Assembly (NCBI GenBank): GCA_035505375.1
Contig: DATJQV010000081.1
Span: 151,423 to 215,422 of the forward strand
Direction of reading: 5' to 3'
DNA from: a bacterium
Lineage (GTDB): Bacteria > Hydrothermota > Tepidihabitantia > Tepidihabitantales > Tepidihabitantaceae
DNA: 64,000 nt
This document shows positions 11,224 through 57,800 of this stretch, piece after piece. Numbering within the stretch: position 1 is the first letter of the stretch; every line of letters starts with the position of its first letter. The position numbers and the translations under genes were made by a program. Under the pieces are notes generated by a model that saw only the letters and a list, made by a program, of their open reading frames with translations, was not told the DNA's origin and did no database searches.

Positions 11224-11265
11224 GGCAACTCAAGGTTGAGGTTAAGGCTAAGGCCGAGCCATAGA

Positions 11266-11610: not shown

Positions 11611-11779
11611 GTCCTTGAATGAAAGATAGGCCGGTCTAGGTTGAGGTAGAGATGGAGGATTAGGTTGAGATTCTGGTCGAGGTCGAGATTCAGACATAGA
11701 CCTTCCTGGACCTTAGCCCTGACCTTGGCCTAACCCTTGCTCCTAACTTCGACCTCAACCTTAGCCTTGACCTCATCGC

Positions 11780-24834: not shown

Positions 24835-24910
24835 CTGGCGCTATCAACAAGCATAAGCTATTGATATTTAAGGTGATAATTGGCATGCAGAGTCACCCGC
24901 GCCAGCACTC

Positions 24911-25222: not shown

Positions 25223-25415
25223 GAAGACGGGTATGCAGCGTGTCGGCTGATTGGGCGCTGACCATGGCCTTGATCATTCCAAGGACGGCAGCTTGCGGCG
25301 GTATATAGACACCAGGAATGCAGGAAGCCATCCAGCAAGCTCTTGGACGAACAATCTATGGAGCCTTCTGGCGAGCAGCGGAGCCAGTCCCGACCGGTGC
25401 TGTTGAGGCCGCGCT

Positions 25416-26834: not shown

Positions 26835-26843
26835 GACTCCTCC

Positions 26844-28148
26844 TTACTTTACGACGACAATCCTCCTAACGTCTTCTTGCTCACTACTCATCTCTCCCCG
26901 CTCCCTCACGAAATACACGCCGGGCGCAAGTCGCGACACATCATTCGCGCCGGAGTGCAACTCCGCGACCTTGCGCCCCGCCGCATCCAGGAGGACAGCG
27001 CGGAAAATGGGGACTGTACCGCGCCGAGTCGGACGCAGCCGCTCCGAGGGACTGTCCCCGTTTTCAGCTCGCGGCACAAACAGCACGTTCCTGACGACTG
27101 AGGGCGTTCGCGGCAAGCTGCGGACTCCCAGTTCCCGCGGCGCATCGCTCAATCCCAAAATGCCCATACCGTGAGCTATCCAAATGGCTCCGTGGTCGGA
27201 GTAAGCAATCACGGGTTCATTAAACGTGTCAGTTGTGATATCGCACCTGCCCGGACTTACCGAATCTCGGACGACCGACGTCTCTCCCCCCAGCATTGCG
27301 AACTTGATGCGGCCTGCCCGAGCCCACACGCACTGGACGCCGGCGGGGTTGTTCATGCAGGCCGCGCCGATGGAAGTGACACTGTCCAGCCGCACCCCAT
27401 CGCAGACAAGTTTATCATTCACAGGGTCCATCGCCGACCAGAATGTGTGAATGTAGTCGGAGCCGTCGGCCGCCAACGCGGCAAGGACGCCGCCACCGCC
27501 ATGGATCCCGCCTGCCTCTGTATCTGACGTCCAAACCCCACTGTCTCGCGTGTAGAGACTGACATTGTAAAAGTCAAAGAAACCACCCATGACCCCGTCG
27601 TCACTCTCCATGAACGCGCAATTGCCGTTCCAGCACCAGGTCGGACGGGTGAACGTAATCCACCAGTCCGAGTAGTTGGAGTCGGGAGGGATGACCAAGC
27701 TGGTGTCCCAACCCGAGTCAGTTCTCTGACCGAGGCACACGTTGCCAAGGCTATCCTTGAACATAAGCGATGGCCGACCGGCAAGGTCATAGCTGAAAGC
27801 CACGCCACTCATGGGCATGGGTAGTTGCTCAGATGACCAGACGGAGTCTCTGCGTTCGGCGAGTCGTCCCGATCCCACTACGCCAATCACGTCTCCAGGG
27901 CCGATGTCGAATGAGAACGGGGGTCGAACAAACGCAGTGTCTAAGTCTTCGTACTCCCACACTGTATCCTTGTGGGCAAGCCTGATGGCGGAGTCACGGG
28001 TGAGGTACGCGAGCCAGATCGTCCCGTCACTCGTCTTGTCAATGGCCACGTACGACCCAATGCTCCCGCTATCGACCTGCTCGAATTCCCAGTAGCCGGC
28101 GAGACAGACAGATGCGGTCACGGCAACGACGACGACCAGCGCTCTCAT
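26844..28148 (-). CDS. Secreted T9SS-CTD protein, paralog 1 of 3 in tandem
   Basis: N-terminal signal MRALVVVVAVTASVCLAGYWEFEQVDSGSIGSYVAIDKTSDGTIWLAY. The C-terminal tail is GANDVSRLAPGVYFVRE. Confidence 0.6.
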   Translation of the reverse strand: MRALVVVVAVTASVCLAGYWEFEQVDSGSIGSYVAIDKTSDGTIWLAYLTRDSAIRLAHKDTVWEYEDLDTAFVRPPFSFDIGPGDVIGVVGSGRLAERRDSVWSSEQLPMPMSGVAFSYDLAGRPSLMFKDSLGNVCLGQRTDSGWDTSLVIPPDSNYSDWWITFTRPTWCWNGNCAFMESDDGVMGGFFDFYNVSLYTRDSGVWTSDTEAGGIHGGGGVLAALAADGSDYIHTFWSAMDPVNDKLVCDGVRLDSVTSIGAACMNNPAGVQCVWARAGRIKFAMLGGETSVVRDSVSPGRCDITTDTFNEPVIAYSDHGAIWIAHGMGILGLSDAPRELGVRSLPRTPSVVRNVLFVPRAENGDSPSERLRPTRRGTVPIFRAVLLDAAGRKVAELHSGANDVSRLAPGVYFVRERGEMSSEQEDVRRIVVVK

Positions 28149-28157
28149 TGCATCTCC

Positions 28158-29441
28158 TTACCTGACCACCACGACCCTCCTGACTCCCGCGCGCTCGTGG
28201 CCTACTCCTTCATCTCCCACAAAGTACACGCCCGGCGCAAGTCGCGACACATCGTTTGCGCCTATATGCAGCTCCGCCACTCTGCGCCCCGCCACATCCA
28301 GCAGGGCTGCGGCTTGGAGCTTGTGGTCTGAGGCCTGCGGCAGGAACAGCACGTTCCTGACAATTGAAGGAGCTCGTGCCATACTGCGGACTATCGACTC
28401 CCGCGGCTCATCGGTCAATCCAACGATGCCCACGCCGTGTGCGACCCAGATGGAGCCGTCGCTTCGGCAGAAGGCTATGACCGGCTCAGCCAACTTGTCA
28501 GTCGTGATGTCGCACCAGACGACCCGATCCGCGCCTCCGACGACTTGTGTCGGCTCCCCGAGCAGGACGAACTTGAGGAGGCTGTCACGGGCCCACCATG
28601 CACACTGCACGCGACCGGAGTCGTCCAGGCAGGCCGCGCCGATGCTGGTGCAGGCGTCCAAGACAACGCCGTCGCAGACCAATTCGTCCGCCACGTAGTT
28701 GTCGGCAGCCGACCAGAACGTGTGAATGCTGTCGGAACTGTCAACCAACGCGGCAAGCCCGATTCCTTCGCCGTCGAGCCCGCCCGTTCCGCCGAAGTCT
28801 GTCCAGACGCCGCTATCTCTTCGCTTGAAAGAGACTTCGTAACCGTCTTGCAGGCCCATGCTCCACCAGTCGGCCACAATGAGTGCGCAGTTGCCATTCC
28901 GGCGCCAAGCCGGAGCGGTAATAGTAGCCCACGTCGAGTTTTGTGGGACATAAAAGACATTCGTGTCCCAGGATGGGCCTGTCTTCAGGCCGACGCAGCC
29001 GCGCCCCAAGCTGTCCTTGAAAGTGAGCGACGGCCGGCCTGCCGGGTCATAGCTCATGGACAGACCGTACATGACCATTGGCAGTCGCTCGGACGCCCAG
29101 ACGGAATCTCTGCGTTGGGCGAGCCGACCCAGTCCGACCACGCCGATGGCGCCGTCCGTGCTCACGTCGAAGGAGAACGGGAGGTTGTCACGAAGGAAAT
29201 TCGAAGGGAATATGGGACGAACCAAGGCGGTATCCAGGTCTTGGTACTCCCACACTGAATCCCGGTGGGCGAGCCTGATCGCGGAGTCACGGGTAATGTA
29301 CGCGAGCCAGATGGTCCCGTCGCTCGTCTTGTCAATCGCGACGTACGACCCAATGCTACCGCTGTCTACCTGTTCGAATTCCCAGTAGCCGGCGAGACAG
29401 ACAGATGCGGTCATGGCAACGACGACAACCAACGCTTTCAT
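28158..29441 (-). CDS. Secreted T9SS-CTD protein, paralog 2 of 3
   Basis: Over 60% identical to paralog 1 in the N-terminal 120 aa (MKALVVVVAMTASVCLAGYWEFEQVDSGSIGSYVAIDKTSDGTIWLAYITRDSAIRLAH). Confidence 0.6.
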   Translation of the reverse strand: MKALVVVVAMTASVCLAGYWEFEQVDSGSIGSYVAIDKTSDGTIWLAYITRDSAIRLAHRDSVWEYQDLDTALVRPIFPSNFLRDNLPFSFDVSTDGAIGVVGLGRLAQRRDSVWASERLPMVMYGLSMSYDPAGRPSLTFKDSLGRGCVGLKTGPSWDTNVFYVPQNSTWATITAPAWRRNGNCALIVADWWSMGLQDGYEVSFKRRDSGVWTDFGGTGGLDGEGIGLAALVDSSDSIHTFWSAADNYVADELVCDGVVLDACTSIGAACLDDSGRVQCAWWARDSLLKFVLLGEPTQVVGGADRVVWCDITTDKLAEPVIAFCRSDGSIWVAHGVGIVGLTDEPRESIVRSMARAPSIVRNVLFLPQASDHKLQAAALLDVAGRRVAELHIGANDVSRLAPGVYFVGDEGVGHERAGVRRVVVVR

Positions 29442-29450
29442 TGCATCTCC

Positions 29451-30725
29451 TTACCTGACCACCACGACCCTCCTGACTCCCGCGCGCTCGTGGCCTACTC
29501 CTCCATCTCCCACAAAGTACACGCCCGGCGCAAATCGCGACACATCGTTTGCGCCTATATGCAGCTCCGCCACTCTGCGCCCCGCCGCATCCAGCAGGCT
29601 TGCGGCTTGTGGCTTGCGGCCTGAGGACTGCCGCAGCAACAGGACGTTCCTGACGACTGAGGGAATTCTCGACAGGCTGCTGACTGCCGACTGCTGCGGC
29701 GCATCGCTCAGTGCGGCAACGCCCACCCCGTGGGCGACGTGAATGGAACCGTCGCTCAAGCGGTATGCGATCACGGGCTGTGAAAGTGAATCGGTCGTTA
29801 TGTCACAGCAGGTGATACTGACGCCGCTCAAGACCACCTGTATCGGCTCATGGAGCAAGTCGAACTCCAGCGCATTGTTGCCTACCCATACGCACTGCAC
29901 GCGGCCGGAGCCGTCCAGGCAGGCCGCGCCGATGGAAGTGTAACCGTCCAGTCGCACCCCATCGCAGACAAGTTCATCAGTCCCGTAAGGGTCGCCTGCC
30001 GACCAGAGTGTGTGAATGCTGTCGGAGCTGTCAGCCAACGCCGCAAACCCGCAACCGCCGCCGTCGAGTCCGCCCGCTCCGCCGAAGTCTGTCCAGACAC
30101 CGTTGTCTCGTCGTTTGAGAGAGACGTCGTAACCGTCAATCAAGCCACCCTCGGTCCACACGTCGGCCTCAATGAGTGCGCAGTTGCCGTTCCGGCGCCA
30201 ACCCGGGCGGGTAAGGGAATACGTGTTGCTATCCGTCATGTAGACAACATTCGTATCCCAGGAGGAATCAGTCTTCAGGCCAAGACACCCGCGCCAGAGG
30301 CTGTCCTTGAACGTAAGCGATGGCCGACCGGCCGGGTCATAGCTTAAGGCCGCATCTCTCATGGGCATCGGTAGTTGCTCAGATGACCAGACGGAGTCTC
30401 TGCGTTCGGCGAGTCGTCCCGATCCCACTACGCCCATCACATCTCCAGGCCCGATGTCAAACGAGAAAGGCGGCCGGACGAGCGACGTATCCAAGTCTTC
30501 GTACCACCACCCCGCGTCCGCGTGCGCAAGCCGGATGACGGAATCGCGGTTCTCGTAGGCGAGCCAGATGGTCCCGTCACTCGTCTTGTCAATGGTCACG
30601 TACGACCCAATGCTCCCATTGTCCACCAGTGCGAAGGTCCAATAGCCTGCACGGCAGATGGTCGCGACCGTGGCAATGGCGACCACGGATATTTGAAGAC
30701 GCCGGCAGAAGTCAAACGTTGCCAT
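29451..30725 (-). CDS. Secreted T9SS-CTD protein, paralog 3 of 3
   Basis: The start is taken at MATFDFCRRLQISVVAIATVATICRAGYWTFALVDNGSIGSYVTIDKTSDGTIWLAY. The ORF is open upstream to 30989, probably without meaning. Confidence 0.55.
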   Translation of the reverse strand: MATFDFCRRLQISVVAIATVATICRAGYWTFALVDNGSIGSYVTIDKTSDGTIWLAYENRDSVIRLAHADAGWWYEDLDTSLVRPPFSFDIGPGDVMGVVGSGRLAERRDSVWSSEQLPMPMRDAALSYDPAGRPSLTFKDSLWRGCLGLKTDSSWDTNVVYMTDSNTYSLTRPGWRRNGNCALIEADVWTEGGLIDGYDVSLKRRDNGVWTDFGGAGGLDGGGCGFAALADSSDSIHTLWSAGDPYGTDELVCDGVRLDGYTSIGAACLDGSGRVQCVWVGNNALEFDLLHEPIQVVLSGVSITCCDITTDSLSQPVIAYRLSDGSIHVAHGVGVAALSDAPQQSAVSSLSRIPSVVRNVLLLRQSSGRKPQAASLLDAAGRRVAELHIGANDVSRFAPGVYFVGDGGVGHERAGVRRVVVVR

Positions 30726-30726
30726 C

Positions 30727-31275
30727 CTATTCAAGGTCTTCCTCCTTTGCGGAACGGCGGAGCATCTCAAGCTCTGCGATTTCGGCCTTGAGGAGTTCGT
30801 AGACGTTGTAGACAATCGGGCAGTACGGCAGGTTCCAGAGCGCCATGACGGAATGGGTGGCGAAATCCGGCCTGTACAGGAAGGGAAAGTCGACGCAGGA
30901 CTCGGGCCGGCTGTGGTAGTAGCGGCAGAGTTTGTCCTGAAGAAACGGGCAGGGCTTCTGAGTGGGCACGAACTTCCCCTTCTCCTCAACCTCCTTCAGG
31001 TACGTGTGCGCGAGTACGTCCGGCGTGACACCCACGGCCTGCGCCAGCCGCGCAATATCTCTCCGGCTTAGCGCCGGATACAACTCTCGGCAGCAGTTGG
31101 CACACGTGCGGCAGTCGATTTTCGAGGAGACTATGCCCGACAGACGGTGGACGATGCCGTCGATCTCTTCCGGAGTGATAGAGCAACGTCTGATGTGGAC
31201 ACGAAACGCCTGGTTCTCGGCTTCCTTCTCTTTGGCCAGTTCCAGTATGCGGGCAAGGTCGGTCTCGAGTTTCAT
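30727..31275 (-). CDS. YkgJ-family (UPF0153) Cys-cluster protein
   Basis: CxxCxxCC motif (CRTCANCC) plus additional conserved Cys residues. 182 aa. Confidence 0.65.
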   Translation of the reverse strand: MKLETDLARILELAKEKEAENQAFRVHIRRCSITPEEIDGIVHRLSGIVSSKIDCRTCANCCRELYPALSRRDIARLAQAVGVTPDVLAHTYLKEVEEKGKFVPTQKPCPFLQDKLCRYYHSRPESCVDFPFLYRPDFATHSVMALWNLPYCPIVYNVYELLKAEIAELEMLRRSAKEEDLE

Positions 31276-35063: not shown

Positions 35064-35262
35064 GGGGCTTATCCTGATTCGGCAGCATCGGTGGTCTGAC
35101 ACCGACACTGCGCTGCCGACAGCAAGTCAGAATCGAAACCGGCCGACTGATGGATCCCGACCGGTTGAGATGCACGACATTCACGCGGCATACGCGAGGA
35201 ACCATCGCCCTCCTTTGGAAGCGCCCCGGCATCCGAGCCGGGGCGCTGGTTTCCAGACAGAG
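35064..35262 (+). ncRNA. Candidate structured RNA or 5' leader (unclassified)
   Basis: Nested hairpins (cggcagc...gctgccg and aaccgg...ccggtt) end in a 10-bp GC stem agcgccccgg / ccggggcgct followed by GGUUUCC. The region is 530 bp and gene-free. Confidence 0.3.
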
Positions 35263-35396: not shown

Positions 35397-36041
35397 ATGA
35401 AGGGCATCAGGCTCGAACCGGCCCGCAGCCTCCTCGACAACTTCACCCACGCAGAGCTGGCGCGTCTCGTCAGACGGAGCCGGCTCAAGGTTTCCGTCCC
35501 CCGCAGCCGTGCCGCCCTGGCCGACCTGATTACGAAGCATCTGGATCTCGACGGCGTAGTAGAAGAGACCCGCCAGCTTTTCCACACCCGGCGTTCAGCG
35601 CCACGCCGTGCAGCGCACGCGACCCGGCTCGACCAGCTTCCCCCGCTTCACGGAAGCGCCACGGTTCAGGCATACTCGCGTTCCCGGCCACAGCTCGGCC
35701 GGGCACTGCTCGGACGCAGCGACGACTGCATGGCGCTCGGCTTCAATAGTGTGCCGCTTTTCCTTGAGAACCGCTGGCCGGTCGTCGTGCGCGATGTCGG
35801 CCTTGTGCCGCGCTCGCGGCTCTATGCAGCTTTCGTCCGGCCCGGCCGCGTTCACCCTTCGGCTGAGGCCGCGCCGCCCCGGACCAAACCCTATTTGCTG
35901 GACGAAGGCGAGTACCAGCTCCGAAACGGCCGACTCCGGTTCGAGCTGGCACACGCCGGCCCGATTTCCTTCCAAGTGACATTCCTGCGCAAGCGACCGC
36001 CCGCCGGCCGGGCAGAGTATCTTTTCGAACCCATCGTCTAG
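35397..36041 (+). CDS. Hypothetical protein
   Basis: ORF only. The start is taken at MKGIRLEPARS. Confidence 0.35.
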   Translation: MKGIRLEPARSLLDNFTHAELARLVRRSRLKVSVPRSRAALADLITKHLDLDGVVEETRQLFHTRRSAPRRAAHATRLDQLPPLHGSATVQAYSRSRPQLGRALLGRSDDCMALGFNSVPLFLENRWPVVVRDVGLVPRSRLYAAFVRPGRVHPSAEAAPPRTKPYLLDEGEYQLRNGRLRFELAHAGPISFQVTFLRKRPPAGRAEYLFEPIV

Positions 36042-36129
36042 TCATTTTCGATTTCCGCTTGTCGATTTCCGATTGTCCGCCCAGACTTCTGAATTCTGCC
36101 TTCTGGTTTCTGAATTCTGAATCGTCCTG

Positions 36130-36915
36130 ATGGTCGGACTACTCGTCCTCGCCATCGCCCCGGCCGTCGCCCTGTTCCTCTTCTTCTACCTCCGCGACAA
36201 GTACCGAAGAGAACCCATCGGTGTCCTGCTGGTAACGTTCGCGCTGGGCGCCGCCTCACTGGTTCCCGCGGCAATCACGTCGCTCTCGCTTCAGAAGCTC
36301 ACCGGCTGGCGCTCAAGCACCCCCAGCCTGCTCCATGCCTTCCTCGGCGCGATGATTATCGTCGGCCTGGTCGAAGAGGGCGCGAAGTTCATTGTCGTCC
36401 GGTTCTACGCCTACCACCGGCCCGAGTTCGACGAACCCTATGACGGGATAATGTACTCGGTCATGGCCGCGCTCGGCTTTGCCACCCTAGAAAACATCAT
36501 CTACATCTTCTCAAACGGCGCCGGAACCGGCGTGATGCGCGCGCTGCTGGCGATGCCGAGCCACGCCTTCGACGGCGTGCTGATGGGCTACTTCCTCGGC
36601 GAGGCCAAGTTCGCGCGCAACGACCGTGTCGGCAACTGGCTTTCCGCTCTTGGTTTCGGATTGGCAGTCATCGCCCACGGGCTATACGACTTCATTGTTT
36701 TCTCGCTCGACAAGAGGCCGCTGATGGTGCTAAGCCTGCTCACGATGGCGGTTCTATTCTGGGTTATTTTCTTCAAGGCCACTCGGAAACTGTCGGAACA
36801 GTCGCCCTACAAACACCCGCAGCTAGTCGCACTTCGCCGCGACTCGGCCGAAGAGGCGAAGACCGAAGAACATACGGACAACCTACAAGACACAAAGCCA
36901 CCGCAGAAGGGATGA
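36130..36915 (+). CDS. prsW: PrsW-family intramembrane metalloprotease
   Basis: EEGAKF, FATLEN and HGLYD motifs in a multi-pass membrane protein. Confidence 0.75.
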   Translation: MVGLLVLAIAPAVALFLFFYLRDKYRREPIGVLLVTFALGAASLVPAAITSLSLQKLTGWRSSTPSLLHAFLGAMIIVGLVEEGAKFIVVRFYAYHRPEFDEPYDGIMYSVMAALGFATLENIIYIFSNGAGTGVMRALLAMPSHAFDGVLMGYFLGEAKFARNDRVGNWLSALGFGLAVIAHGLYDFIVFSLDKRPLMVLSLLTMAVLFWVIFFKATRKLSEQSPYKHPQLVALRRDSAEEAKTEEHTDNLQDTKPPQKG

Positions 36916-37021
36916 AGGCGGAGGGATGAAGGATGAATTCCGGTTCCGGCCTCCCGGTTCAGCCTTTCCGGTTTCATCGCTTCCTCTTTGTGTCTTGGTG
37001 TCTTTGTGGTGAATCCCGAAA

Positions 37022-37654
37022 CTACTGACCCGCCCGCGAAAACTCCTCGATAGCCGCATCCGACAGTGGGTGATTGCCGAGACTGAGCAGTATGTCCAGC
37101 GGTAGCGTCAGATGATTCGCCCCGGCCACTACGGCCTGCGTGGCCTCATCGGCCGACTTGATACTCGCGGCCAGTATCTCAACACATCTGTCGGACGTCC
37201 TGAGCACCGCCGCCATCTCGGCCACCAGCTTGTTCCCGTCACCAAGTAACCGCGTAGCCCGGTTCACATAGGGAATCACGTAGCGAGCGCCCGCTTCGCA
37301 GGCGACGAGAGTCTGAGCTCCGCTGTAGACAGCGGTAGCGGCACACGGAGTGTCCCGTGAGAGCTTCGCCATCAAAGCCAGGTTCTCGGTTGTGGCAGGT
37401 ATCTTCAGCACGACCTTCTCGCGGCAGATGTCGAAGAACTCCCTGCCCTCGCGCTCCCGCTCTTCCGGCGTCTTTGCCGTCACCTGATAGAACACCGGCC
37501 CAGGCGCAAGTGCGCAGATCTGCCGAATGATGTCTTTCGGCTGCCCCTTCACCTTCGCCATGATGGTCGGGTTCGTGGTCACGCCCGAAAGAAACCCGAG
37601 CTCGACCGCCCGCCTTACTTCCTCAATCTTCGCGCTATCCAGGAATAGTCCCAC
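37022..37654 (-). CDS. fsa: Transaldolase / fructose-6-phosphate aldolase family (short TalC/Fsa type)
   Basis: 210 aa. GVTTNP and a VLKIPAT Schiff-base lysine region. Confidence 0.8.
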   Translation of the reverse strand: MGLFLDSAKIEEVRRAVELGFLSGVTTNPTIMAKVKGQPKDIIRQICALAPGPVFYQVTAKTPEEREREGREFFDICREKVVLKIPATTENLALMAKLSRDTPCAATAVYSGAQTLVACEAGARYVIPYVNRATRLLGDGNKLVAEMAAVLRTSDRCVEILAASIKSADEATQAVVAGANHLTLPLDILLSLGNHPLSDAAIEEFSRAGQ

Positions 37655-37657
37655 TGC

Positions 37658-38815
37658 TCACTCCTTTTCGGTTCGGGTCAAGAAACGTTCGACATGATCC
37701 CGCCTTGGCATGGATGGTTCAGCGCCCATGATGGTGCAGGCGAGAGCGCCGCAGGCGTTGGCGAATCGCACAGCTTCATCAAGGCTGGCACCCTCGGCAA
37801 TTCTCACCGCCAATCCGGCGCGGAACGCATCCCCAGCGCCGGTCGTGTCCACGACGTTCACCTTGTGCGCCGGGAACCGGGTCAGCGCGGCGCGGTCAAC
37901 TGCCAGCGCGCCTTCTTCGCCGAGTGAGATAACCACGCCCTGCCGCGTCTCGGGCAGAAGCACAGCCGCCGCTTCCTCCGGCGTCATCCTGCCGGTCAGC
38001 ATGTGGGCTTCGATTTCGTTGGGCACAAGGTAGTCAAAGTAGAAGTCGTCCAGTGGTCTCGTGGTCGAGTGTTCCGGCATCTCCGTTCTGGAACTCTGGC
38101 TTCTGCCCCCTTCTGTCTGACTTGGTGCCTTTGCGTCTTGGTGGTGAAATCCGTCTCCGCAATTCTGGTTTCTAGTTTCTGGTTTCTGGTCTCTGGTTTC
38201 TCCGTCCGCCTTTGTGTCTTCGTGTCTTTGTGGTGAATCCCCGCAATTCTGGACCCTGGACTCTGGATTCTGGATTCTGGATTCTTCCTGTCCTCCATGC
38301 CTCACCGGCGCAGGGTCGAGCAGCACCAGTGTTCCGTGCTTCCGGGCAATCTCGGCGGCACGCCGCGACGCTGCCAACGGTATCTCGAACTGGAGCATCA
38401 GGATGTCGGCGAGGGCAATCTGCTCCTCTACCGCGAGCACATCCTCGGGCGTCACGCGCATGTTGGCCCGCGGCGCGGCGATGATGCTGTTCTGCCCGTT
38501 CTCGTCCACGACCGGCGTGGCAATCGCGGTTCCCGCCTCAGGGTCGCGGGTCACGCCACTCAGGCAGATTCCTTCCTGCTCCAGCTTGGCGACGAACATG
38601 TCACCGAACGGGTCGCGGCCGACCCGACCGACGATGCACACGTCAGCGCCCAGTCGCCTCGCTCCGACCGCCTGGTTGAACCCCTTGCCGCCGAGGAACA
38701 TACCGAAGTCTTCGGCCAGCATCGTCTCGCCCGGTCCGGGCCGGTGCTTCACTCTAAACATGAGGTCGGTCACGAAGCTCCCGACAACCAGAACGCGAGG
38801 CCGGTCGCCTTTCAT
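37658..38815 (-). CDS. PfkB/ribokinase-family sugar kinase carrying an in-frame insertion of about 75 aa
   Basis: N-terminal GGKGFNQA and C-terminal DTTGAGDAF motifs. Between LDPAPV and DDFYFDYLVPNE, where E. coli RbsK has about 8 residues, lies about 75 aa of low-complexity sequence. It is encoded by heptamer and 35-nt repeats at 38090-38300. Confidence 0.7.
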   Translation of the reverse strand: MKGDRPRVLVVGSFVTDLMFRVKHRPGPGETMLAEDFGMFLGGKGFNQAVGARRLGADVCIVGRVGRDPFGDMFVAKLEQEGICLSGVTRDPEAGTAIATPVVDENGQNSIIAAPRANMRVTPEDVLAVEEQIALADILMLQFEIPLAASRRAAEIARKHGTLVLLDPAPVRHGGQEESRIQNPESRVQNCGDSPQRHEDTKADGETRDQKPETRNQNCGDGFHHQDAKAPSQTEGGRSQSSRTEMPEHSTTRPLDDFYFDYLVPNEIEAHMLTGRMTPEEAAAVLLPETRQGVVISLGEEGALAVDRAALTRFPAHKVNVVDTTGAGDAFRAGLAVRIAEGASLDEAVRFANACGALACTIMGAEPSMPRRDHVERFLTRTEKE

Positions 38816-38830
38816 CTCGTCGCCAGCAGG
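38785..38830. repeat. Direct repeat A (ribokinase start region), partner of 40699-40745
   Basis: caaccagaacgcgaggccggtcgcctttcatctcgtcgcc versus caagcagaacgcgcggccggtcgcctttcatgctgtcgag. Confidence 0.7.
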
Positions 38831-38831
38831 A

Positions 38832-40604
38832 CTATAGCGGCAGCTTCTCCCACTGGAATCTCCGTCGAGCAACGTTCATGCACCTGTCAAACATGGCATT
38901 AGTCCGCAAGAAACTATAGCTCTCTTGGGCGAGCCTCGTCTGATCGTCATTGTTGTTCACAGCTTCAGCGACGATGAATCTCACGCGGGTTGAAGCGACT
39001 TGCTTGAGCCGATCGAGGTAGTTCCCCCGAACGACTAGGTCGTTGCCGTAGCTGTTAGTTAGGTCGTCAAGGTCGTCCGCGTTGAGCACGCCCTGCACCA
39101 CGAGCGCCCAAATGAGATTGCGTGCTCGACCCATGTAGTCGTACTTGTTCTCGCCTCGTTTCACGATTTCCTGCACGACGCTATTCAGTTTCAACTGCAC
39201 CTTGTATAGCAGAATGATCTTCCTGCTGTCCGCCTCTAGGTAGCACTTGCGGAAACAGTCCGAATACTGTTTCTCCTCGCCAAAGACATCCCTGAGCCGA
39301 GACATCCGGTCGGTCTGCCCCTGTATGGCAAGAAACGTCTGCGCCAGCTTCTTGATATCAACGGCCCTGCCAACAGTGACGTCGTACCCCTGGTCCTCGA
39401 GCTCGGAATCCGACAGACTCTCGAATGACTCCTCCTGTCTTTCGTAGAAGAGACGGAGGTCGTCCCTGAGCTTCTCTTGTATGGCGAGCTGAATGTCGTC
39501 GTTTGCCCTGAGATGCCACGGCTCAACCGGGTTCTGCTGGTTGTTTCTGACAGTCACGTTCACCACAAAGTCACGCGAGGCAGCCGATATGAACTTCGCG
39601 ATGACGTGTACGTCCTCAAGGCGGCTGCGGTTACTAACAAGCGCCGCATTGTCTTTGTTGTCATCAACGAACTTCGCCAAGCTCGTGATAGTCTGCGCAC
39701 CATTCAGAAGGCGGGGCTCCACAATGGTCGCCCGACGATCGGCGACCTCGAGAGCCTCGACCGCCAGGGCGACACCGTTGTGGTTGAACGCAAAGACGCT
39801 GGGCTCGTCCCTCTCGGCAAGGACAATGTCCCGAAACGCTGCTCTAAGGGCACGATTTGGGCGCGATTCCGGTGACAGACCCGCTCGAATGTTCCTCTCG
39901 AAGAACCTAAACCCCATCTCACGATACATGCGATAGAGATCCATCAGTCTGACTGTGCCCACATGAAGGCGCTCTCCCGCGGGGCCGACGCATTCTCCAT
40001 GCCAGGGCATGTCGACATCGTACCTGTGGAGTTTTTGGACAGGCGGGGTCCACTTCTTCTTGGTCTGGTTCGAAGCGAACTGGGTGAAGAATTCCACCTC
40101 TCTCCCAAAGAATCCGTTCACGACGTGCCGTTTGTCTTCAAGTTCCTCACGTAAGGCGGTAAGCGTAGGGCTGTTCTCAGCAGCCCTCGCGTCCCCGTTG
40201 AAGACGAACTGAACGATGACGCGATCCACAATAGCCTTGTTCTCGATAATGGCCGACTTGAGTTGTCCGACAAGAGGATTCTGTCTCTCGTCCTGAAGCG
40301 GGTCACCGAATATGCGTTGAATGCCTGCTGAGATCAGACGCCTGAACGATTCTCTGAACAGAGTGTGATTCTCCGACCACTTGAATTGGAACAGATAGAG
40401 ATTCCGTCTTGTCATGTCGAGATGAAACGCGTCGAAGCCGTAGTCATCGCCACCGAATGCCACCTGACAGGCTACCTCCTCGACCGATTGGTAACCATAC
40501 TCCCTCATCAGGTAGAGAACTGCGAAGTAGTCCTCTTTCACGCCACCATAGTGAACTGAGTGTTCTTTGAAGGTTTGGTCGAGTTCTCTCTGCGTGACAA
40601 TCAT
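38832..40604 (-). CDS. Putative abortive-infection / phage-defence protein (AIPR-like), on a lower-GC island
   Basis: 590 aa. The N-terminal GGDDYGFDAF block resembles the G-DDGGIDA motif of AIPR (PF10592) proteins. Hand-counted GC in 60-nt stretches is about 47-55% inside the gene versus 62-68% in its neighbours. The family call rests on memory of that motif and is not verified. Confidence 0.4.
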   Translation of the reverse strand: MIVTQRELDQTFKEHSVHYGGVKEDYFAVLYLMREYGYQSVEEVACQVAFGGDDYGFDAFHLDMTRRNLYLFQFKWSENHTLFRESFRRLISAGIQRIFGDPLQDERQNPLVGQLKSAIIENKAIVDRVIVQFVFNGDARAAENSPTLTALREELEDKRHVVNGFFGREVEFFTQFASNQTKKKWTPPVQKLHRYDVDMPWHGECVGPAGERLHVGTVRLMDLYRMYREMGFRFFERNIRAGLSPESRPNRALRAAFRDIVLAERDEPSVFAFNHNGVALAVEALEVADRRATIVEPRLLNGAQTITSLAKFVDDNKDNAALVSNRSRLEDVHVIAKFISAASRDFVVNVTVRNNQQNPVEPWHLRANDDIQLAIQEKLRDDLRLFYERQEESFESLSDSELEDQGYDVTVGRAVDIKKLAQTFLAIQGQTDRMSRLRDVFGEEKQYSDCFRKCYLEADSRKIILLYKVQLKLNSVVQEIVKRGENKYDYMGRARNLIWALVVQGVLNADDLDDLTNSYGNDLVVRGNYLDRLKQVASTRVRFIVAEAVNNNDDQTRLAQESYSFLRTNAMFDRCMNVARRRFQWEKLPL

Positions 40605-40659
40605 GCGTCCTCCACCTGCGGCCAGTTTCTAGTCTTGTGGATCCATCGTTGCGGCGACC

Positions 40660-40738
40660 TAGGCCGGCGCGGGATCCGCGACAGGACGTCTGTTGTAAAT
40701 CGCCTGACAAGCAGAACGCGCGGCCGGTCGCCTTTCAT
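40660..40738 (-). pseudogene. Duplicated remnant of the ribokinase 5' end
   Basis: The reverse complement reads ATGAAAGGCGACCGGCCGCGCGTTCTGCTTGTC..., giving MKGDRPRVLLVRRFTTDVLSRIPRRP*. The intact gene reads MKGDRPRVLVVGSFVTDLMFRV. The remnant stops after 26 codons. Confidence 0.6.
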
Positions 40739-40784
40739 GCTGTCGAGAGAATACCCGGAATCAGACGACTATCAACCGGCTGAG

Positions 40785-41153
40785 CTACTTGTCCTTATCT
40801 CTGAACAACGCCGACATGATCATGGTGGCGATGCTGACGATGAGCGCGCCAAAGAACGCGGCCCAGAACCCGCGCACGTAGAAGCCGACGTGAAACCAGT
40901 GGACGGCGATGGACGACGACAACCACAGCGTCAGGGCATTGATGACGAGCGTGAACAAACCAAGCGTCAGAATGATGAGCCCGCAGGATAGCAACTTGAG
41001 GACCGGCCTGACGAGCGCGTTGACCAGACCCAGAATGACGGCCATCACCGCATAGATCCACCACGCGTTGGCCGCGACCTTGATGCCCGGCACGATCCAG
41101 GCGGCAAGGAACAAGGCAAGCGCCGCAATCAGCCATCGGATGAGAAGCTTCAC
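40785..41153 (-). CDS. DUF360 / phage-holin-family-4-like small membrane protein
   Basis: 122 aa with 3-4 TM helices and a YvlD/DUF360-like pattern. Confidence 0.55.
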   Translation of the reverse strand: MKLLIRWLIAALALFLAAWIVPGIKVAANAWWIYAVMAVILGLVNALVRPVLKLLSCGLIILTLGLFTLVINALTLWLSSSIAVHWFHVGFYVRGFWAAFFGALIVSIATMIMSALFRDKDK

Positions 41154-41616
41154 GGTTCCTCCCTTGGTAAGCGCCGGCCAGCGCGGTGGCTCAAGTCAGG
41201 CTGCCAGCCGCGCACGCTCGGCGCAAGTCATCTTGGATTGCCACAAGAATACCGACAATCCGCCGGCCATCAAGACGCAGCCACCAGCCTGAATCCGACA
41301 TAGAGACTCACCACAAAGGCACAAAGACACAAAGAGGGTGAGGACGGAAATCGGCTCTGTCTGCTTGGTGTTCTTGGTGTCTTGGTGGTTCAATATCGGG
41401 TTTGGGGCACAAGCTTATGAGAGGCTCGTCTTCGGGCGCAGGGCTAGGCCCCTGATTCCCTCGGACGCACGGAGCATTTGGAAGCCGGTTTTGAGGCAGC
41501 CCGAACCATCCCAGTTTCTTATAAGTCCCCAAGGATTCCGACCCGGAAATCTCCTAACTTATCTCTTTTCAATTCACTATTCACTCTTTCCGTTTCTCCC
41601 CTATCCCATCCCCCCG

Positions 41617-41908
41617 GCTATTCTGTAGGTTATTCTCCAGCTTACCCGGAGAGCAATTCCGAGGATTGCTCCGCAGGCAATCCGGTGAGGAATCCGGAGA
41701 GCTACCTGGTCTGCTCTTCGGTCAGTTGCTCGGCGGGCTATTCGGAGAGGAACTCGGCGAGCTATCCGGAAAGCTGCCGGGAGGGTAATTGGAAGAGCTC
41801 CTCCTCAGATTGCCCGGAGAATAGCCGGGCAAGTAACTCGGAAAGCAACCTCCCGAGCAACTGTGCGGACAATCCGGAGAACTACCGGGCGGGCTATTCG
41901 GAAAGTAG
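41617..41908. repeat. 12-nt (24-nt super-period) tandem array, a different motif family (xGCTATYCGGAR); possibly part of a tetra/octapeptide-repeat ORF (41478-41993, plus strand)
   Basis: About 24 units, for example ggctattcggag aggaactcggcg agctatccggaa agctgccgggag. Differences between units at positions 3, 6 and 12 are almost all transitions (c/t, a/g), as expected for synonymous third-codon sites in the plus frame. Confidence 0.7.
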
Positions 41909-42023
41909 CATGCCCAAACCTCAGCCCAGCAGCCTGGTCAGTTCCAGCCGACTACCTCGGTCAGAACGACCTTGCGGATGGCTTGCGGCTTGAGGCTTGG
42001 AGCTTGGGGCAGAGTGGCCTCGG

Positions 42024-42776
42024 CTACTTCTGTTGTTTGGGTGCGTTTGGCGTCGGGTTCACCTGTCCTGGACCATGGCGAGGTCTTGCCTCGGCAGGAT
42101 TGTACTCATCGATGTATCCCTTCGGGCCTCTTCTTTCAACAGTCCCGAACTGGCCCAGCCCGACGGGGAGGGAAAAGAACCACTCCTCCGTCTGTTGGCC
42201 GATCTGGACTCTCACACAGGCGTCGTAATCGTCGCCACTAATCACGTACTTGGCCCTCGTGGCTCCGAGAAAGGTGACCTCGGTGGAAGGACCTTGCTCG
42301 CCGTAGATTGCCGCGATGATGAAGGCCTCTGCCAGCTCGATGATGTTCTTGTTGGTTACGTTCATGCCGTTGTCTATGAGCAGCCGGTTGAAGCCATATG
42401 GCATCGAGTAGCCCTTCCCCTCATCAATTGCCATGAGATAGGGGTGCCGGGGGGGCGAAGTGAAGTCGTGGCCCAGGTAGAAGTGGGCCGCTGGAAAGAC
42501 GCGTGCCAGCGTCGGCTCGGAAACTTCGACGAATCCGAACGTGCCGGCCATGTACTCCGCATCATTCCTCCTGGCGGCCAAGAAGCTTGGCACCAGCTCC
42601 GGGAACTTCTGAAGGATGTCCATAGCCTCGCTCGTCGAGATGTGCCGCAGGGAAACTGCGGACTGCACCTCCTTCGCCGGCTTCCTTCCCGACCCTGCTG
42701 CCACAGAAATGGCAGCGACCACGAGCAGCCCGACAAGGGCCATTCTGACGCTTCTACTATGATGGGGCAGGCTCAT
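42024..42776 (-). CDS. Hypothetical secreted protein
   Basis: Signal peptide MSLPHHSRSVRMALVGLLVVAAISVAAG. Amino-acid composition is balanced. The overlapping plus-strand ORF 41997-42953 is Arg/His-rich, as antisense ORFs in this GC range usually are. Confidence 0.5.
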   Translation of the reverse strand: MSLPHHSRSVRMALVGLLVVAAISVAAGSGRKPAKEVQSAVSLRHISTSEAMDILQKFPELVPSFLAARRNDAEYMAGTFGFVEVSEPTLARVFPAAHFYLGHDFTSPPRHPYLMAIDEGKGYSMPYGFNRLLIDNGMNVTNKNIIELAEAFIIAAIYGEQGPSTEVTFLGATRAKYVISGDDYDACVRVQIGQQTEEWFFSLPVGLGQFGTVERRGPKGYIDEYNPAEARPRHGPGQVNPTPNAPKQQK

Positions 42777-42886
42777 CGGCTCTCCTGTCATCAGTCTATG
42801 ACAGTCACAGTCGCAGTCAAGCGAGCCACGCCGCGCGGCCGCCCAAGGCGGCCTTTGGGTGATGGCGGCGTGTGGTGTCGTGCCGA

Positions 42887-43729
42887 CTACTCGCGGCGAC
42901 CGAGCAGTCGTTTGAGCCAGGCAACGACACCGTCTGCGAATGGTTCAAAGTAGGCTGCGCCGGGATAGCGGTCGGCAGACGCGAGGTTCACGCTGACTGC
43001 TGCCGCTTGCGGTTCAAGCTCGGGACTGGCGTCGCGAGCCAGTGATGCCAGTATGTAGCGATCATCAGTTGCCGCTTTTGCCATGGACTCGTGCAGTCGG
43101 TTCAGCGCCAGGTACGTCGTTGTCCAGTTGATCCATTCTGTCCGGTCTCGGGCCTCGGCCACGGCAGCCGGTATCGCGTCCGGCACAAGCGAATATCCGC
43201 CGGGCGTACGTCGGACAATACCGGCGGTGCTCCATCGTTCAAGCACGTTGTAGACTCGCTTCTGGTCCACGTACAGCGCCCGCGCGATTGAGGACGAGTT
43301 GCCGCTCTTGTTGAACAGCAGATAGCCGAAGACGTCGGCACGAGCGTCCATGCCGAGCAGAGCCCGAAGTTGGAGCTGCAGCAGCACGGGCTGAGTGACG
43401 ACCGGCCTCACGACCCTGGTCCGGCTGCGAGCTAACGCGTCCGGCACCAGCGCCTCCGAGTCCATCTCGGTGTCGAACGCAGAACTGATGCGTCTCAGCC
43501 GTGGTGTGCTCACCCATTCTTGGTTCACCGCCAGCCACTCACCTGCCAGTCTCAGCAACCTTGCATCCGCCCGTCCAAGCCGTGAGACCGAAACAGCCAA
43601 GGCCTCAAGGTCCACCACCCAATGGCTCTCGGGCTCAACCTGTCCGGCGACGCCCAGCGCGCACCACTGCCGCCAGTGCAGTTCCAGCATCAGCTCGCGG
43701 AGTTCGGCTCTAAATCTCTTCGGCGACAT
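42887..43729 (-). CDS. Hypothetical protein with a possible winged-helix segment
   Basis: 280 aa. IARALYVDQKRVYNVLERWSTAGIV resembles a MarR/wHTH recognition helix. No secure family. Confidence 0.35.
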   Translation of the reverse strand: MSPKRFRAELRELMLELHWRQWCALGVAGQVEPESHWVVDLEALAVSVSRLGRADARLLRLAGEWLAVNQEWVSTPRLRRISSAFDTEMDSEALVPDALARSRTRVVRPVVTQPVLLQLQLRALLGMDARADVFGYLLFNKSGNSSSIARALYVDQKRVYNVLERWSTAGIVRRTPGGYSLVPDAIPAAVAEARDRTEWINWTTTYLALNRLHESMAKAATDDRYILASLARDASPELEPQAAAVSVNLASADRYPGAAYFEPFADGVVAWLKRLLGRRE

Positions 43730-43937
43730 AAGGGGCGGTCTTCAGTGTCGAATCTCATCTGCTAGTAGTTTAACTACTAATAGCTAGTCTGTAAAAGACT
43801 GCGTTCGGTTCCCAGTCTCACTGTGAATTGCAGAGCACACGGAGATGACTCGGTCAGGGATGACACCGGCTTTCACTCGACTCTGTGTCCGCGTCCTCCG
43901 TGGTGAATTCCGCCCGCTTCCCGAGTCCCTTCGTCTG

Positions 43938-43966
43938 TTTGACTTCGCCTCTGACACGGATATAGT
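43938..43966 (+). promoter_or_regulatory. Putative lysS promoter
   Basis: TTGACT, a 17-nt spacer, then TATAGT, ending about 9 nt before the lysS ATG. Confidence 0.4.
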
Positions 43967-43974
43967 CTTGCCCG

Positions 43975-45546
43975 ATGAGCGACAACCCTAGTCAAGCCGA
44001 CAGCCGACAGCCGACGACTGACGGCCCAATCCAGACCAGCGGTCATGACCGCGAAATCAGGCTGGCCAAACTCGCCAAGCTGCGCGAGGCCGGAGTCAAT
44101 CCGTATGCCTACAAGTGGGACCGGACCCACACGAACGCGAAGGCGATTGCAGAATTCGAGAGAGTCCAGAGTTCAGAGCCTTCGGGTGCCGGCTTGGGAC
44201 ACGATCCCAATTCCCCGAGCGGAATTGGGTCATGTCCCGCGCTTGAGGTTCGCGTCGCCGGACGGTTGATGTCGCGGCGGGAGCACGGCAAGACCCAGTT
44301 CGCCCACATTCAGGACGAGACCGGTAAGCTCCAGCTATACCTGCGCAAGGATACGCTGGGCGAGCAGGCGTTCGCGAACCTGAGCCTGCTCGACCTCGGG
44401 GACTTCGTGGGAGCACGGGGCGAGATGTTCCGCACCAAGACCGGCGAGGTCACGGTCAACGTGAAGGAACTTGTGCTGCTCACTAAGTCCCTCCACCCGT
44501 TGCCGGAGAAGTTCCACGGCCTGACCGACGTGGAGATGCGCTATCGGCAACGCTACGTTGACCTGATTGTCAATCAGGAGTCGCGACAGGTTCTGCTGAA
44601 TCGGATTAGGGTGACCGGTCTAGTGCGTCGGTTCCTTTCCGAGCGCGGGTTTGACGAGGTAGAGACGCCGATTCTGCAGCCGATATATGGCGGGGCCGCG
44701 GCTCAGCCGTTCGAGACGTTCTACAACGTACTCGAACAGAAGATGTTCATGCGGATTTCCGACGAGCTGTACCTGAAGCGGCTGATTGTCGGCGGGCTGG
44801 AAAAGGTCTTCGAAATCGGCAAGGACTTCCGCAATGAGGGTCTGGACCGGACGCACAATCCCGAGTTCACGCAGATGGAGCTCTACTGGGCCTATGCCGA
44901 CTACAATGACGTGCTGGCCCTGGTCGAGGAGCTGTTCAAGTTCCTCGCCACCGAGGCCTGCGGCAAGACTGAGATTCCGTTCGGCGACCATATTGTGGAC
45001 TTGGGGCGGCCATGGCAGCGGATGAAGTTCGTGGATACGCTGGCAGCGCGGATTGAGGCGGACCCGATGAAGCTCTCGATGCCGATGCTCAAGAAGGTCG
45101 CGGCGCGGTTCAACGTCCAGACCACCGAGGACATTTCGCGCGCCAAGCTGCTGGACAAGCTCTTCAGCGAGTTGATCCAGGACCACATCATTGACCCGAC
45201 GTTCGTGATGGACCATCCGAAGGTGACGACGCCGCTGGCCAAGAGCCACCGCGATAACCCGGAGTTGGTTGAGCGGTTCGAGCCGGTGGTGTGCGGCATG
45301 GAACTGGGCAATGCGTTCTCCGAGCTGAATGACCCGGCCGAGCAGCGGCAGCGGTTTGAGGAAGGCGTGGCTCTGAACGAGGAGTTCGCGACGGTTGACG
45401 AGGACTATTGCACAGCGCTCGAGTTCGGCATGCCGCCGACCGGCGGGCTCGGGCTGGGCATCGACCGTATCGCCATGCTGCTCACGAACTCGCAGACCAT
45501 ACGGGACGTCATACTATTCCCTCAACTTCGCCCGCAGAAAGAGTGA
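43975..45546 (+). CDS. lysS: Lysine--tRNA ligase (class II)
   Basis: 523 aa. An OB anticodon-binding domain and the class II motifs (FRNEG, GGLGLGIDR). The N-terminal Asp-rich extension is typical. Confidence 0.9.
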   Translation: MSDNPSQADSRQPTTDGPIQTSGHDREIRLAKLAKLREAGVNPYAYKWDRTHTNAKAIAEFERVQSSEPSGAGLGHDPNSPSGIGSCPALEVRVAGRLMSRREHGKTQFAHIQDETGKLQLYLRKDTLGEQAFANLSLLDLGDFVGARGEMFRTKTGEVTVNVKELVLLTKSLHPLPEKFHGLTDVEMRYRQRYVDLIVNQESRQVLLNRIRVTGLVRRFLSERGFDEVETPILQPIYGGAAAQPFETFYNVLEQKMFMRISDELYLKRLIVGGLEKVFEIGKDFRNEGLDRTHNPEFTQMELYWAYADYNDVLALVEELFKFLATEACGKTEIPFGDHIVDLGRPWQRMKFVDTLAARIEADPMKLSMPMLKKVAARFNVQTTEDISRAKLLDKLFSELIQDHIIDPTFVMDHPKVTTPLAKSHRDNPELVERFEPVVCGMELGNAFSELNDPAEQRQRFEEGVALNEEFATVDEDYCTALEFGMPPTGGLGLGIDRIAMLLTNSQTIRDVILFPQLRPQKE

Positions 45547-45615
45547 CAGGGGATTCGGATAATCCAGAATCCAGAGTCCAGAGCTCAGAATCCAGAATCG
45601 ACGGACGGGACGAGG

Positions 45616-45975
45616 ATGAGGGACTTCCGATCGGACCTGAGCGAACGGCTGCTAGACTTCGCGGTCAGCGTCGTTGCGCTCGCCCCGCGTCTGCAGCGCT
45701 CGGCAACCGGTCGTTTCATGGTGGGGCAACTGGTGCGTTCTGCTTCCTCAGCAGGTGCGAACTTCCATGAAGCTTGTGGTGCCGAAAGCAGAGCCGACTT
45801 CGCACATAAGATGCAGGTGGTCCTCAAGGAATTGCGCGAGACCGAGTACTGGTTGAAGCTGGTCACGCGGGCAAAACTGCTTCCGACCGATCTGCTGTCG
45901 GAACCATTGGCTGAGGCGGACGAGTTGATCAGAATCGTGGTGAAGTCCGTTGTCACTGCCAAGTCGAGACCCTGA
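45616..45975 (+). CDS. Four-helix-bundle protein (PF05635 family), copy 2
   Basis: FAVSVVALAPRL...VRSASSAGANFHEACGAESRADFAHKMQVVLKELRETEYWL. Confidence 0.7.
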   Translation: MRDFRSDLSERLLDFAVSVVALAPRLQRSATGRFMVGQLVRSASSAGANFHEACGAESRADFAHKMQVVLKELRETEYWLKLVTRAKLLPTDLLSEPLAEADELIRIVVKSVVTAKSRP

Positions 45976-46041
45976 TGTCGGGTTTGTCAATTCTGGGTTC
46001 TAGTCTCTGGATTCTGAATTCTGGACTATCCGGAGTCCGCC

Positions 46042-48013: not shown

Positions 48014-48116
48014 CAAAGCAGAAATCAGGATTCAGATACCAGAATGCAGAACTGCCGGACTTTCTGACTTCTGGTCTCTGTTCTCTGAATTCTGAATTAT
48101 CCGGAGTGTCCGGGCT

Positions 48117-57362: not shown

Positions 57363-57410
57363 GATTGGGGCTAGGGGTTAGGGAATAGGGGTTAGAGAGG
57401 ACACGGGAGG

Positions 57411-57791: not shown

Positions 57792-57800
57792 CCCTAGTCC

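Follow-up and report, generated by a model that had tools for sequence, protein, structure and literature searches.

REP and REPIN elements are the closest described systems to the repeat studied here. In these elements a single small gene, RAYT (TnpA-REP), is bracketed by two inverted repeat arms, many more gene-less inverted doublets and singlets lie in extragenic DNA, and the presumed relation between the two forms is that of non-autonomous copy and helper gene (PMC8266576, PMC5581495, PMC3733652). Each REP repeat is a 20-40-nt palindrome with a GTAG or CGTC tag (PMC3733652), the RAYT gene encodes a HUH tyrosine transposase, and REP sequences are specific to a genome and its RAYT. A second system is the 23S rRNA intervening sequence (IVS) of Leptospira and Coxiella, located in helix 25 or 45, in which a small selfish ORF (S23p, four-helix bundle) sits inside a long stem made by inverted ends. 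In Coxiella, two to three tandem heptamers (GACAGAT) lie next to this ORF, their number varies between strains, and the IVS is excised by RNase III (PMC4990558). The palindromic elements of Rickettsia are short non-coding repeats found inside ORFs, read through in frame and tolerated as extra peptide loops. Finally, abundant intergenic arrays of 7-nt tandem repeats with variable unit number, patchy distribution across phyla and unknown function have been described as cyanobacterial STRR, as GGGNATC in Xanthomonas and Nostoc, and as TAACTGA in Beggiatoaceae (PMC4692102, PMC4679880).

Here we examine a repeat of about 35 nt in a 64-kb stretch of DNA (hereafter the window; about 61% G+C) from an uncultured bacterium, whose ribokinase has its named relatives in candidate division WOR-3. 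We show that the repeat is one arm of a palindromic element family found in more than twenty phyla, where two such arms usually bracket a gene for a small predicted nuclease. The window holds only gene-less copies, two of which are read through in frame inside a sugar-kinase gene.

The Repeat in the Window

A sequence-only reading of the window had reported the repeat at six places and in both orientations, and the repeat is indeed present at every one of them. It consists of three tandem octamers (TCTTKGTG; core CTTNGTG, ending GTGGTGAA) followed by GTGAATCC. A scan for chains of at least three CRCNNAG units spaced 7-9 nt finds five arms, whereas Markov shuffles give 0.03 expected, with a maximum of 1. 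The full 32-mer matches only two sites (36985 and 38209) at three mismatches or fewer, so the copies are diverged. The two arms at 41305 and 41356 are 90-91% complementary to the other copies, and the stretch that contains them folds into one long hairpin. The copy at 24211-24255, reported as a diverged copy, is the right arm of a complete hairpin. The positions and composition of these elements are given in Table 1.

The tails reported after several copies are also confirmed: CCGCAATTCTGG plus CAGAATC-type heptamers follow 38121 and 38209, and TTCAATATCGG follows 41356 and 24211. One statement needs correction. Apart from the ribokinase insertion, all copies had been placed in spacers between convergent or tandem genes. 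However, 43881 lies between divergent genes (a TrmB-like gene on the - strand and a class II aminoacyl-tRNA synthetase gene on the + strand), and 41291-41405 lies just upstream of the start of a holin-like gene, with no convincing gene in the next approximately 600 nt on its other side.

Table 1. Octamer-arm elements and related repeat-bracketed genes in the window. L148 and L230 are loci of relatives; z-scores are against shuffled sequences.
Position	Strand	Feature	Octamer chains in scan	Supporting observations
36985-37016	+	Arm A: TCTTTGTG TCTTGGTG TCTTTGTG + cap GTGAATCC; next to the stop of the transaldolase (TAL) gene, in the spacer between the convergent PrsW and TAL genes	36986-37008 (+)	Syntenic arm in L148 at 3672-3700
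36887-36973	+	Partner half of a nested hairpin; CAAGACACAAAG (36887-36898, in the last codons of the PrsW ORF) pairs with arm A as the outer stem; inner stems are heptamer arrays GGATGAA x4 (36910-36937) and TTCCGGT x5 (36938-36973)		Arrays found by TRF; fold of 36870-37025, -57.8 kcal/mol, z -3.1
38112-38290	-	Two diverged tandem copies (89-nt spacing, about 74% identity) of a composite unit; on the gene strand, heptamer array (GAAWCCA)n - GAATTGCGG - octamer arm TTCACCAC(AAAGACAC)n; arms 38121-38152 and 38209-38240, heptamer arrays 38163-38201 and 38246-38285; read through in frame inside the ribokinase ORF 37658-38872	38121-38143 (+); 38210-38232 (+)	Sense RNA less structured than shuffles (z +1.6)
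41291-41403		ORF-less palindromic element (113 nt); outer stem GAATCCGACAT / TTCAATATCGG; left arm 41305-41337 (CACCACAAAGGCACAAAGACACAAAG); right arm 41356-41390 (CTTGGTGTTCTTGGTGTCTTGGTGG)	41312-41334 (opposite orientation); 41364-41387 (+)	Fold of 41290-41405, RNA -40 kcal/mol, z -3.3, better than every shuffle; DNA z -2.7
24085-24262		ORF-less palindromic element (178 nt) of the same sub-family; outer termini CCTGAATCCGAAAT...TTCAATATCGG; arms ACCACGAAAACACAAGG... and ...TTTCGTGTCTTTCGTGG; loop region of further short tandem repeats		-72.9 kcal/mol, z -6.4; related copy at a non-orthologous locus in L230, 9472-9590
43881-43912	+	Decayed solo arm of the CTCTGTG/CTCCGTG variant with cap GTGGTGAATTCC; two units (reverse complement GGAATTCAC-CACGGAG...CACAGAG), no partner		No significant hairpin (z +0.5); unit types match the commonest ones in GxxExxY cassettes
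45556-46032	+	Four-helix-bundle gene (23S_rRNA_IVP, TIGR02436) at 45616-45975, bracketed by inverted CAGAATC-type heptamer arms (45556-45611 and 45977-46032)		Pfam and NCBIfam; arm alignment score 64, shuffle maximum 28
48018-48100		ORF-less hairpin of inverted CAGAAT-type heptamer arrays: (CAGAANN)5 - loop - (NNTTCTG)5
57352-57829	+	Second IVP gene (57396-57791), bracketed by inverted GGGGTTA / CCCTAAT-type heptamer arms		Arm alignment score 39, shuffle maximum 26
11237-11775	-	Third, IVP-like gene (about 11254-11622), bracketed by inverted GGTTGAG / CTCAACC-type short tandem repeats		Arm alignment score 32, shuffle maximum 28

The two complete octamer hairpins share the inverted termini CCTGAATCCGAMAT / ATATCGGNTYTGG and have a size within the 50-500 nt of MITEs. 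No direct repeat is evident at the three element borders compared, although the orthologous empty sites are too diverged to fix these borders; for the L230 hairpin, compared with relative L232 and with the window, the spacer is likewise too diverged to place the borders or detect a target duplication. No parent insertion sequence was found. Two other assemblies of this population, which carry the identical ribokinase, are 100% identical to the window, and no strain-level presence/absence difference was found.

Octamer Arms inside the Ribokinase Gene

The ORF that holds two of the arms is an intact PfkB ribokinase gene, which reads without interruption through 38085-38300. Relatives differ at exactly this loop. 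The segment from DPAP to VPNE is 69 nt in relative L149, which has no insert. It is 141-150 nt in relatives L230-L233, which carry a heptamer array (GAATCCA)n-GAATTGC plus an octamer array CACTCGAC CACTAGAC CACTGGAC. It is 303 nt in the window, which has the same content plus a further 159 nt, and 336 nt in L148, which has three tandem 57-nt units, each holding an arm GGAGTTCACCACCAAGACACGAAGACAC. The extra 159 nt of the window is the diverged tandem duplication of the composite unit listed in Table 1. All versions stay in frame. In the predicted 385-aa ribokinase of the window, the repeat-encoded loop comprises 78 residues. The CA-rich strand of the arm is the sense strand, and it has no stop codon in any frame. 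Other relatives carry a complete CAGAAT-heptamer hairpin (L246) or a solo heptamer array (L247) in frame at two other sites of the same gene. In an AlphaFold model of the window ribokinase, residues 168-277 have pLDDT below 50; however, the model is poor overall (mean pLDDT 59, built from 19 sequences) and supports only the statement that the insert has low confidence.

Distribution of the Arms across Phyla

The sequence-only reading took the repeat to be a REP/MITE-like family specific to this lineage, and this interpretation is only partly supported. The description as a dispersed palindromic repeat is right in kind, since the elements are non-coding, occur in both orientations, form long hairpins and are even inserted in a gene. 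The restriction to one lineage is wrong. Among GTDB species genomes, the 21-nt pattern YCTTKGTGYCTTKGTGGTGAA occurs in at least 120 stretches. They come from Planctomycetota, Acidobacteriota, Chloroflexota, Pseudomonadota (Alpha-, Beta-, Gamma- and Zetaproteobacteria), Bacteroidota, Verrucomicrobiota, Cyanobacteria, WOR-3, Latescibacterota, Cloacimonadota, Nitrospinota and others, plus one archaeal MAG. Cultured isolates such as Thiocystis minor DSM 178, Propionivibrio limicola, Azospirillum canadense and Fischerella thermalis PCC 7521 are included. Of 134 evaluable sites, 81 (60%) have an inverted partner on the side that places the TTCAC/GTGAA ends outward and only 5 on the other side; in 66 of the 81 the partner is within 150 nt. 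About 40% of instances are solo arms. In viral contigs, the real pattern gives 27 stretches, several with inverted pairs, whereas a reversed-pattern control gives 10 single hits.

Two viral contigs have an ATG in front of the arm, which raised the possibility of a tiny hydrophobic ORF in the GT-rich arm. The window copies and most others have no such ATG, and the idea was dropped. In other phyla, other arrays next to octamer arms are only modestly enriched (12/138 vs. 17/459). Tight coupling to CAGAATC heptamers is therefore mainly a feature of this lineage.

Association with GxxExxY Genes

What do the arms belong to? In seven loci selected by the motif, a gene of approximately 120 codons is associated with the arms; it lies between the two arms in most of them, while in one (L111) it sits beside a complete gene-less hairpin. 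The product matches TIGR04256 (“GxxExxY protein”) and PF13366 (PDDEXK_3). We then sampled this gene family without regard to its flanks, using 80 metagenome loci chosen by protein patterns. Of 74 genes with at least 150 nt on both sides, 51 (69%) have both arms in the cap-outward orientation and 61 (82%) have at least one; background 200-nt windows from the same loci give 9/353 and 3/353. The commonest units are CACAGAG, CACGGAG and CGCAGAG, and the CACAAAG, CACCAAG and CACGAAG units of the window also occur. In 111 arms of this sample, positions -5 to -1 outside the first unit are T.66, T.75, C.57, A.89 and C.88, although no search pattern imposed them. The window copies at 36985, 38121, 38209, 41305 and 43881 carry this TTCAC cap (the copies read GGATTCAC, GATTTCAC, GGATTCAC, AGACTCAC and GAATTCAC), while the copy at 41356 has AAC instead.

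Arms of the sampled cassettes align as inverted repeats with a median length of 41 nt and 85% complementarity. The two arms of one cassette match each other (median score 48) far better than they match arms of other cassettes (22) or in the direct orientation (20). Arm identity rises with protein identity (Spearman 0.22; 0 of 2000 Mantel permutations reach it), which indicates that gene and arms diverge as a unit.

The protein is a likely nuclease. The E, D, E and K residues of the PD-(D/E)XK motif are invariant, and the structure model is confident (pLDDT 94.6). Its nearest folds in a Foldseek search are Cas4, the AdnAB nuclease domain and lambda exonuclease, all weak matches. A search of the sequences of solved structures with the GxxExxY profile gave no hit, and PADLOC gave only a weak Cas4 hit for one GxxExxY protein and none for the IVP proteins. 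The family is very large (7972 of the 8000 candidates scored have an E-value of 1e-5 or below), and a survey of PD-(D/E)XK proteins lists it with “unknown” function and “multiple transfers” between divisions (PMC3424549). Searches of the literature for the arm sequences (CACAAAG, CACAGAG and CGCAGAG versions) and for the family accessions found no description of these flanks, although few subscription journals were covered and prior notice cannot be excluded.

Within the window, a tblastn search with three GxxExxY proteins finds nothing, nor was such a gene found in the relatives' loci. The window copies are ORF-less derivatives, as are most copies elsewhere. They comprise two complete hairpins, one arm that has a partial partner in a nested hairpin, one decayed solo arm and the two direct tandem arms in the ribokinase gene.

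A Parallel Cassette Type with Heptamer Arms

Three four-helix-bundle genes (PF05635 / TIGR02436, the protein of 23S rRNA intervening sequences) also lie in the window, and each is bracketed by inverted arms built of 6-7-nt tandem repeats (Table 1). The CAGAATC-type heptamer of the gene at 45616 is the same that accompanies the octamer arms in the ribokinase gene and forms the ORF-less hairpin at 48018. A Gemmataceae locus shows the same design with the units TAGTCAT / ATGACTA.

Interpretation

We propose that the repeat is one arm of a cross-phylum family of palindromic elements. An arm is 2-5 tandem octamers of the form C-R-C-N-R-A-G-N, capped at its outer end by TTCAC, and two arms face each other with the caps outward. 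In most members of the unbiased sample they bracket a GxxExxY gene, but far more often the arms occur without a gene, as 60-150-nt hairpins or as solo arms. The analysis itself establishes family membership, the association with the gene, the hairpin potential, growth by tandem duplication and in-frame tolerance inside a gene. The remainder is inference: that the elements are selfish DNA rather than host regulatory signals; that the two arms are kept alike by a DNA-level process, either copying as a unit or arm-to-arm conversion on hairpin or cruciform DNA; how the elements move; and that ORF-less copies are non-autonomous derivatives spread or maintained by the nuclease acting in trans, by analogy with REPINs and RAYT. 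In this view, copies would survive where they do no harm, in spacers, where a transcribed copy folds back on itself, or in a protein surface loop in the stop-free CA-rich orientation. We give this reading a probability of about 0.55.

Several results weigh against it. The link between gene and arms is an association, and any action of the nuclease on the arms is inferred. No GxxExxY gene lies in the window or in the relatives' loci, and neither a target-site duplication nor a strain-level presence/absence difference was found. All strong copies lie within about 17 kb of the window. The arms of the 41305/41356 hairpin are of different unit types (CACAAAG vs. CACCAAG) and pair imperfectly. Arms at three places (the TAL/PrsW spacer, next to the holin gene and in the ribokinase loop) have syntenic counterparts in L148, the most distant relative examined (66% ribokinase identity), which speaks for long persistence rather than recent movement. 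Closer relatives (78-86%) lack them, and this means either old copies with repeated loss or targeted re-insertion. On the other hand, the local hairpin sub-family sits at non-orthologous loci in the window and in L230, which favors mobility.

The best surviving alternative, although unlikely, is a host function at the RNA level. Transcribed hairpins would act as RNase III processing sites or 3'-end stabilizers that separate or protect neighboring messages, as the stem of a 23S rRNA IVS is cut by RNase III, and the cassettes would be tolerated because they excise themselves from the transcript. The stems are long, the window hairpins fold far better than shuffles, many cassettes sit in tight operon spacers right after a stop codon, and the Coxiella IVS with a gene of the same family as the window's IVP genes is excised in this way (PMC4990558). 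However, stem mismatches show no excess of G.U over A.C on the sense strand (73 vs. 90), although this test is weak evidence and a transcribed stem could still be an RNase III substrate. ORF-less hairpins in other genomes lie in tandem, divergent and convergent spacers (31, 11 and 9), roughly as is usual for genomes. Solo arms cannot fold, and the ribokinase copies are direct repeats with less structure than shuffles. A role as terminator, one of the functions suggested by the sequence-only reading, is not supported. A scan of 36000-44200 gives terminator-like sites at shuffle level (8 found, 6.8 expected), and none is an octamer-arm stem followed by a T-run. One predicted site (41342-41362) is only a small 7-pair stem in the loop between the 41305 and 41356 arms, and the arms are followed by AATCC or AAAG. 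A gathering-threshold Rfam scan of the whole window finds one tRNA only, and a scan of 36700-41500 finds nothing at an E-value of 1 or below.

It is still less likely that the arrays arise locally by replication slippage and share their sequence by convergence (simple-sequence bias), with no mobility and no link to any gene. The window is full of period-7/8 arrays with many different units (nine stringent period-7 arrays against 0.1 expected), unit number varies between relatives, and a tandem array carries so little information that chance recurrence across 596 Gb is less unlikely than a 21-mer suggests. Yet the cap, the fixed cap-outward polarity and the enclosed gene family were not part of the search patterns and nonetheless recur, the reversed-pattern control is poorer, and arms co-vary with the enclosed protein. 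Similarly doubtful are arrays of binding sites for a host DNA- or RNA-binding protein that regulates adjacent genes. The strict periodicity and the conserved C, C, A and G of each unit look like repeated recognition sites, but the flanking genes have no common function, copies are tolerated inside an ORF, the same sites occur next to unrelated genes in unrelated phyla, and the only recurrent neighbor is the gene that the arms bracket. The least likely is a REP or MITE private to this WOR-3-like lineage and mobilized by its own transposase: a local sub-family with the outer termini CCTGAATCCGAMAT...TTCAATATCGG does exist in the window (two copies) and in L230, but the core arm is shared with more than 20 phyla, which refutes this reading for the core arm, no transposase or RAYT was found nearby, no target-site duplication was seen, and the arms are not themselves palindromic and lack the REP tags.

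It is tempting to hypothesize, more tentatively than the main reading, that two very widespread small gene families of unknown function, GxxExxY (TIGR04256) and four-helix-bundle/S23p (TIGR02436), are the coding cores of an undescribed class of cross-phylum selfish cassettes whose ends are inverted arrays of 8-nt or 7-nt tandem repeats. Such cassettes would shed gene-less hairpins and solo arrays that colonize spacers, rRNA helices (the classical IVS) and even ORFs, and the nuclease would recognize the capped arms on hairpin or cruciform DNA. This would give a common origin to the unexplained intergenic heptamer and octamer arrays of many bacteria, and suggests one frame for three so far separate observations: 23S rRNA intervening sequences with S23p ORFs, intergenic heptamer arrays, and palindromic repeats read through inside proteins. 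In any case, the results link a dispersed repeat to a concrete gene family found across phyla and give that family a testable role. There are also practical consequences. The arms break assemblies (contig L245 ends inside the 41305 arm), lengthen predicted proteins by translated repeat peptides such as ESRIQNP and HHQDTK, and can be mistaken for lineage-specific signals.

Comparison with Described Systems

The heptamer arrays that accompany the octamer arms are of the same kind as those of cyanobacteria, Xanthomonas, Nostoc and Beggiatoaceae, but the papers on the latter (PMC4692102, PMC4679880) describe direct arrays and report no inverted pairing, terminal cap or bracketed small genes. The in-frame copies in ribokinase recall the Rickettsia palindromic elements. 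The sequence family is unrelated, and the ribokinase copies are same-orientation arms plus heptamer arrays that grew by tandem duplication rather than one intact palindrome, although relative L246 does carry an intact heptamer hairpin in frame. With the ORF-bearing rRNA intervening sequences, the window shares the design of a small ORF between inverted ends, the protein family (PF05635), three times bracketed by inverted arrays, and tandem heptamers next to the ORF. However, there is no rRNA in the window, the elements lie in ordinary spacers and in a protein-coding gene, and the octamer arms go with a different gene family.

The REPIN/RAYT system differs in its defining features. The gene flanked by the octamer arms elsewhere encodes a PD-(D/E)XK protein and not a HUH tyrosine transposase, and no IS200/IS605-like ORF was seen among the window proteins scanned. 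Each arm is a tandem octamer array, not a short palindrome, it carries no GTAG or CGTC tag, and its pattern is shared across phyla. The overall design nevertheless resembles REPIN/RAYT, with one small gene between two inverted arms and many more gene-less doublets and singlets.

Other repeats and small genes

Heptamer elements also enter open reading frames. In the ribokinase genes of two relatives, L246 (P0107) and L247 (P0114), a complete 114-nt hairpin of inverted CAGAAT heptamers, or a solo heptamer array, is present in frame at two other positions of the gene. An AIPR/AbiU-like abortive-infection gene sits between the holin-like gene and the ribokinase gene only in this genome, and is absent at the syntenic place in the relatives L148 and L230-L233. 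About 39-nt imperfect repeats (AATCCGGAGAGCTACC...) lie next to the 41291 hairpin, in a ~600-nt stretch with no convincing ORF. L245, the Logan assembly of SRR8879134 and an independent assembly of the same population, ends at window position 41335, inside the left arm of the hairpin; the arms appear to break short-read assemblies.

Additional features in the window and in relatives
Position	Strand	Feature
11237-11775, 45556-46032, 57352-57829		23S-rRNA-IVS-protein (four-helix-bundle, TIGR02436) genes with their inverted arms
38832-40604	-	AIPR/AbiU-like abortive-infection gene
8357-8492 and 24875-25234		Arrays of a 12-nt unit
7685-8137 and 24631-24834	-	Paralogous small ORFs next to the 12-nt arrays
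35185-35250; L230 about 9700-9760; L232 about 3715-3790		Conserved G+C-rich hairpin
41640-41930		About 39-nt imperfect repeats
25416-30770 and 62485-64000		Tandem paralogous genes with heptamers; beta-propeller-repeat protein

A conserved G+C-rich hairpin (GCGCCCCGGC...GCCGGGGCGC), followed by TTCCAAAGGAGGGCGATGGTTCCTCG, lies in the spacer next to the 214-225-aa gene in three relatives. It has no Rfam match, and it could be a leader or a small RNA. The tandem paralogous genes, of about 430 aa, have GGCTTGC heptamers near their 3' ends, while a protein with 42-aa YVTN-type beta-propeller repeats runs off the end of the window.

Long arrays of a 12-nt unit (AGTGACTCCCCC and variants, up to about 22 copies) lie next to two paralogous small ORFs that are 16.6 kb apart, which may be another pairing of a repeat with a small gene. 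Each of the three IVS-protein genes is bracketed by inverted arms made of 6-7-nt tandem repeats, an arrangement that looks like the design of the rRNA intervening sequence transplanted into ordinary spacers.
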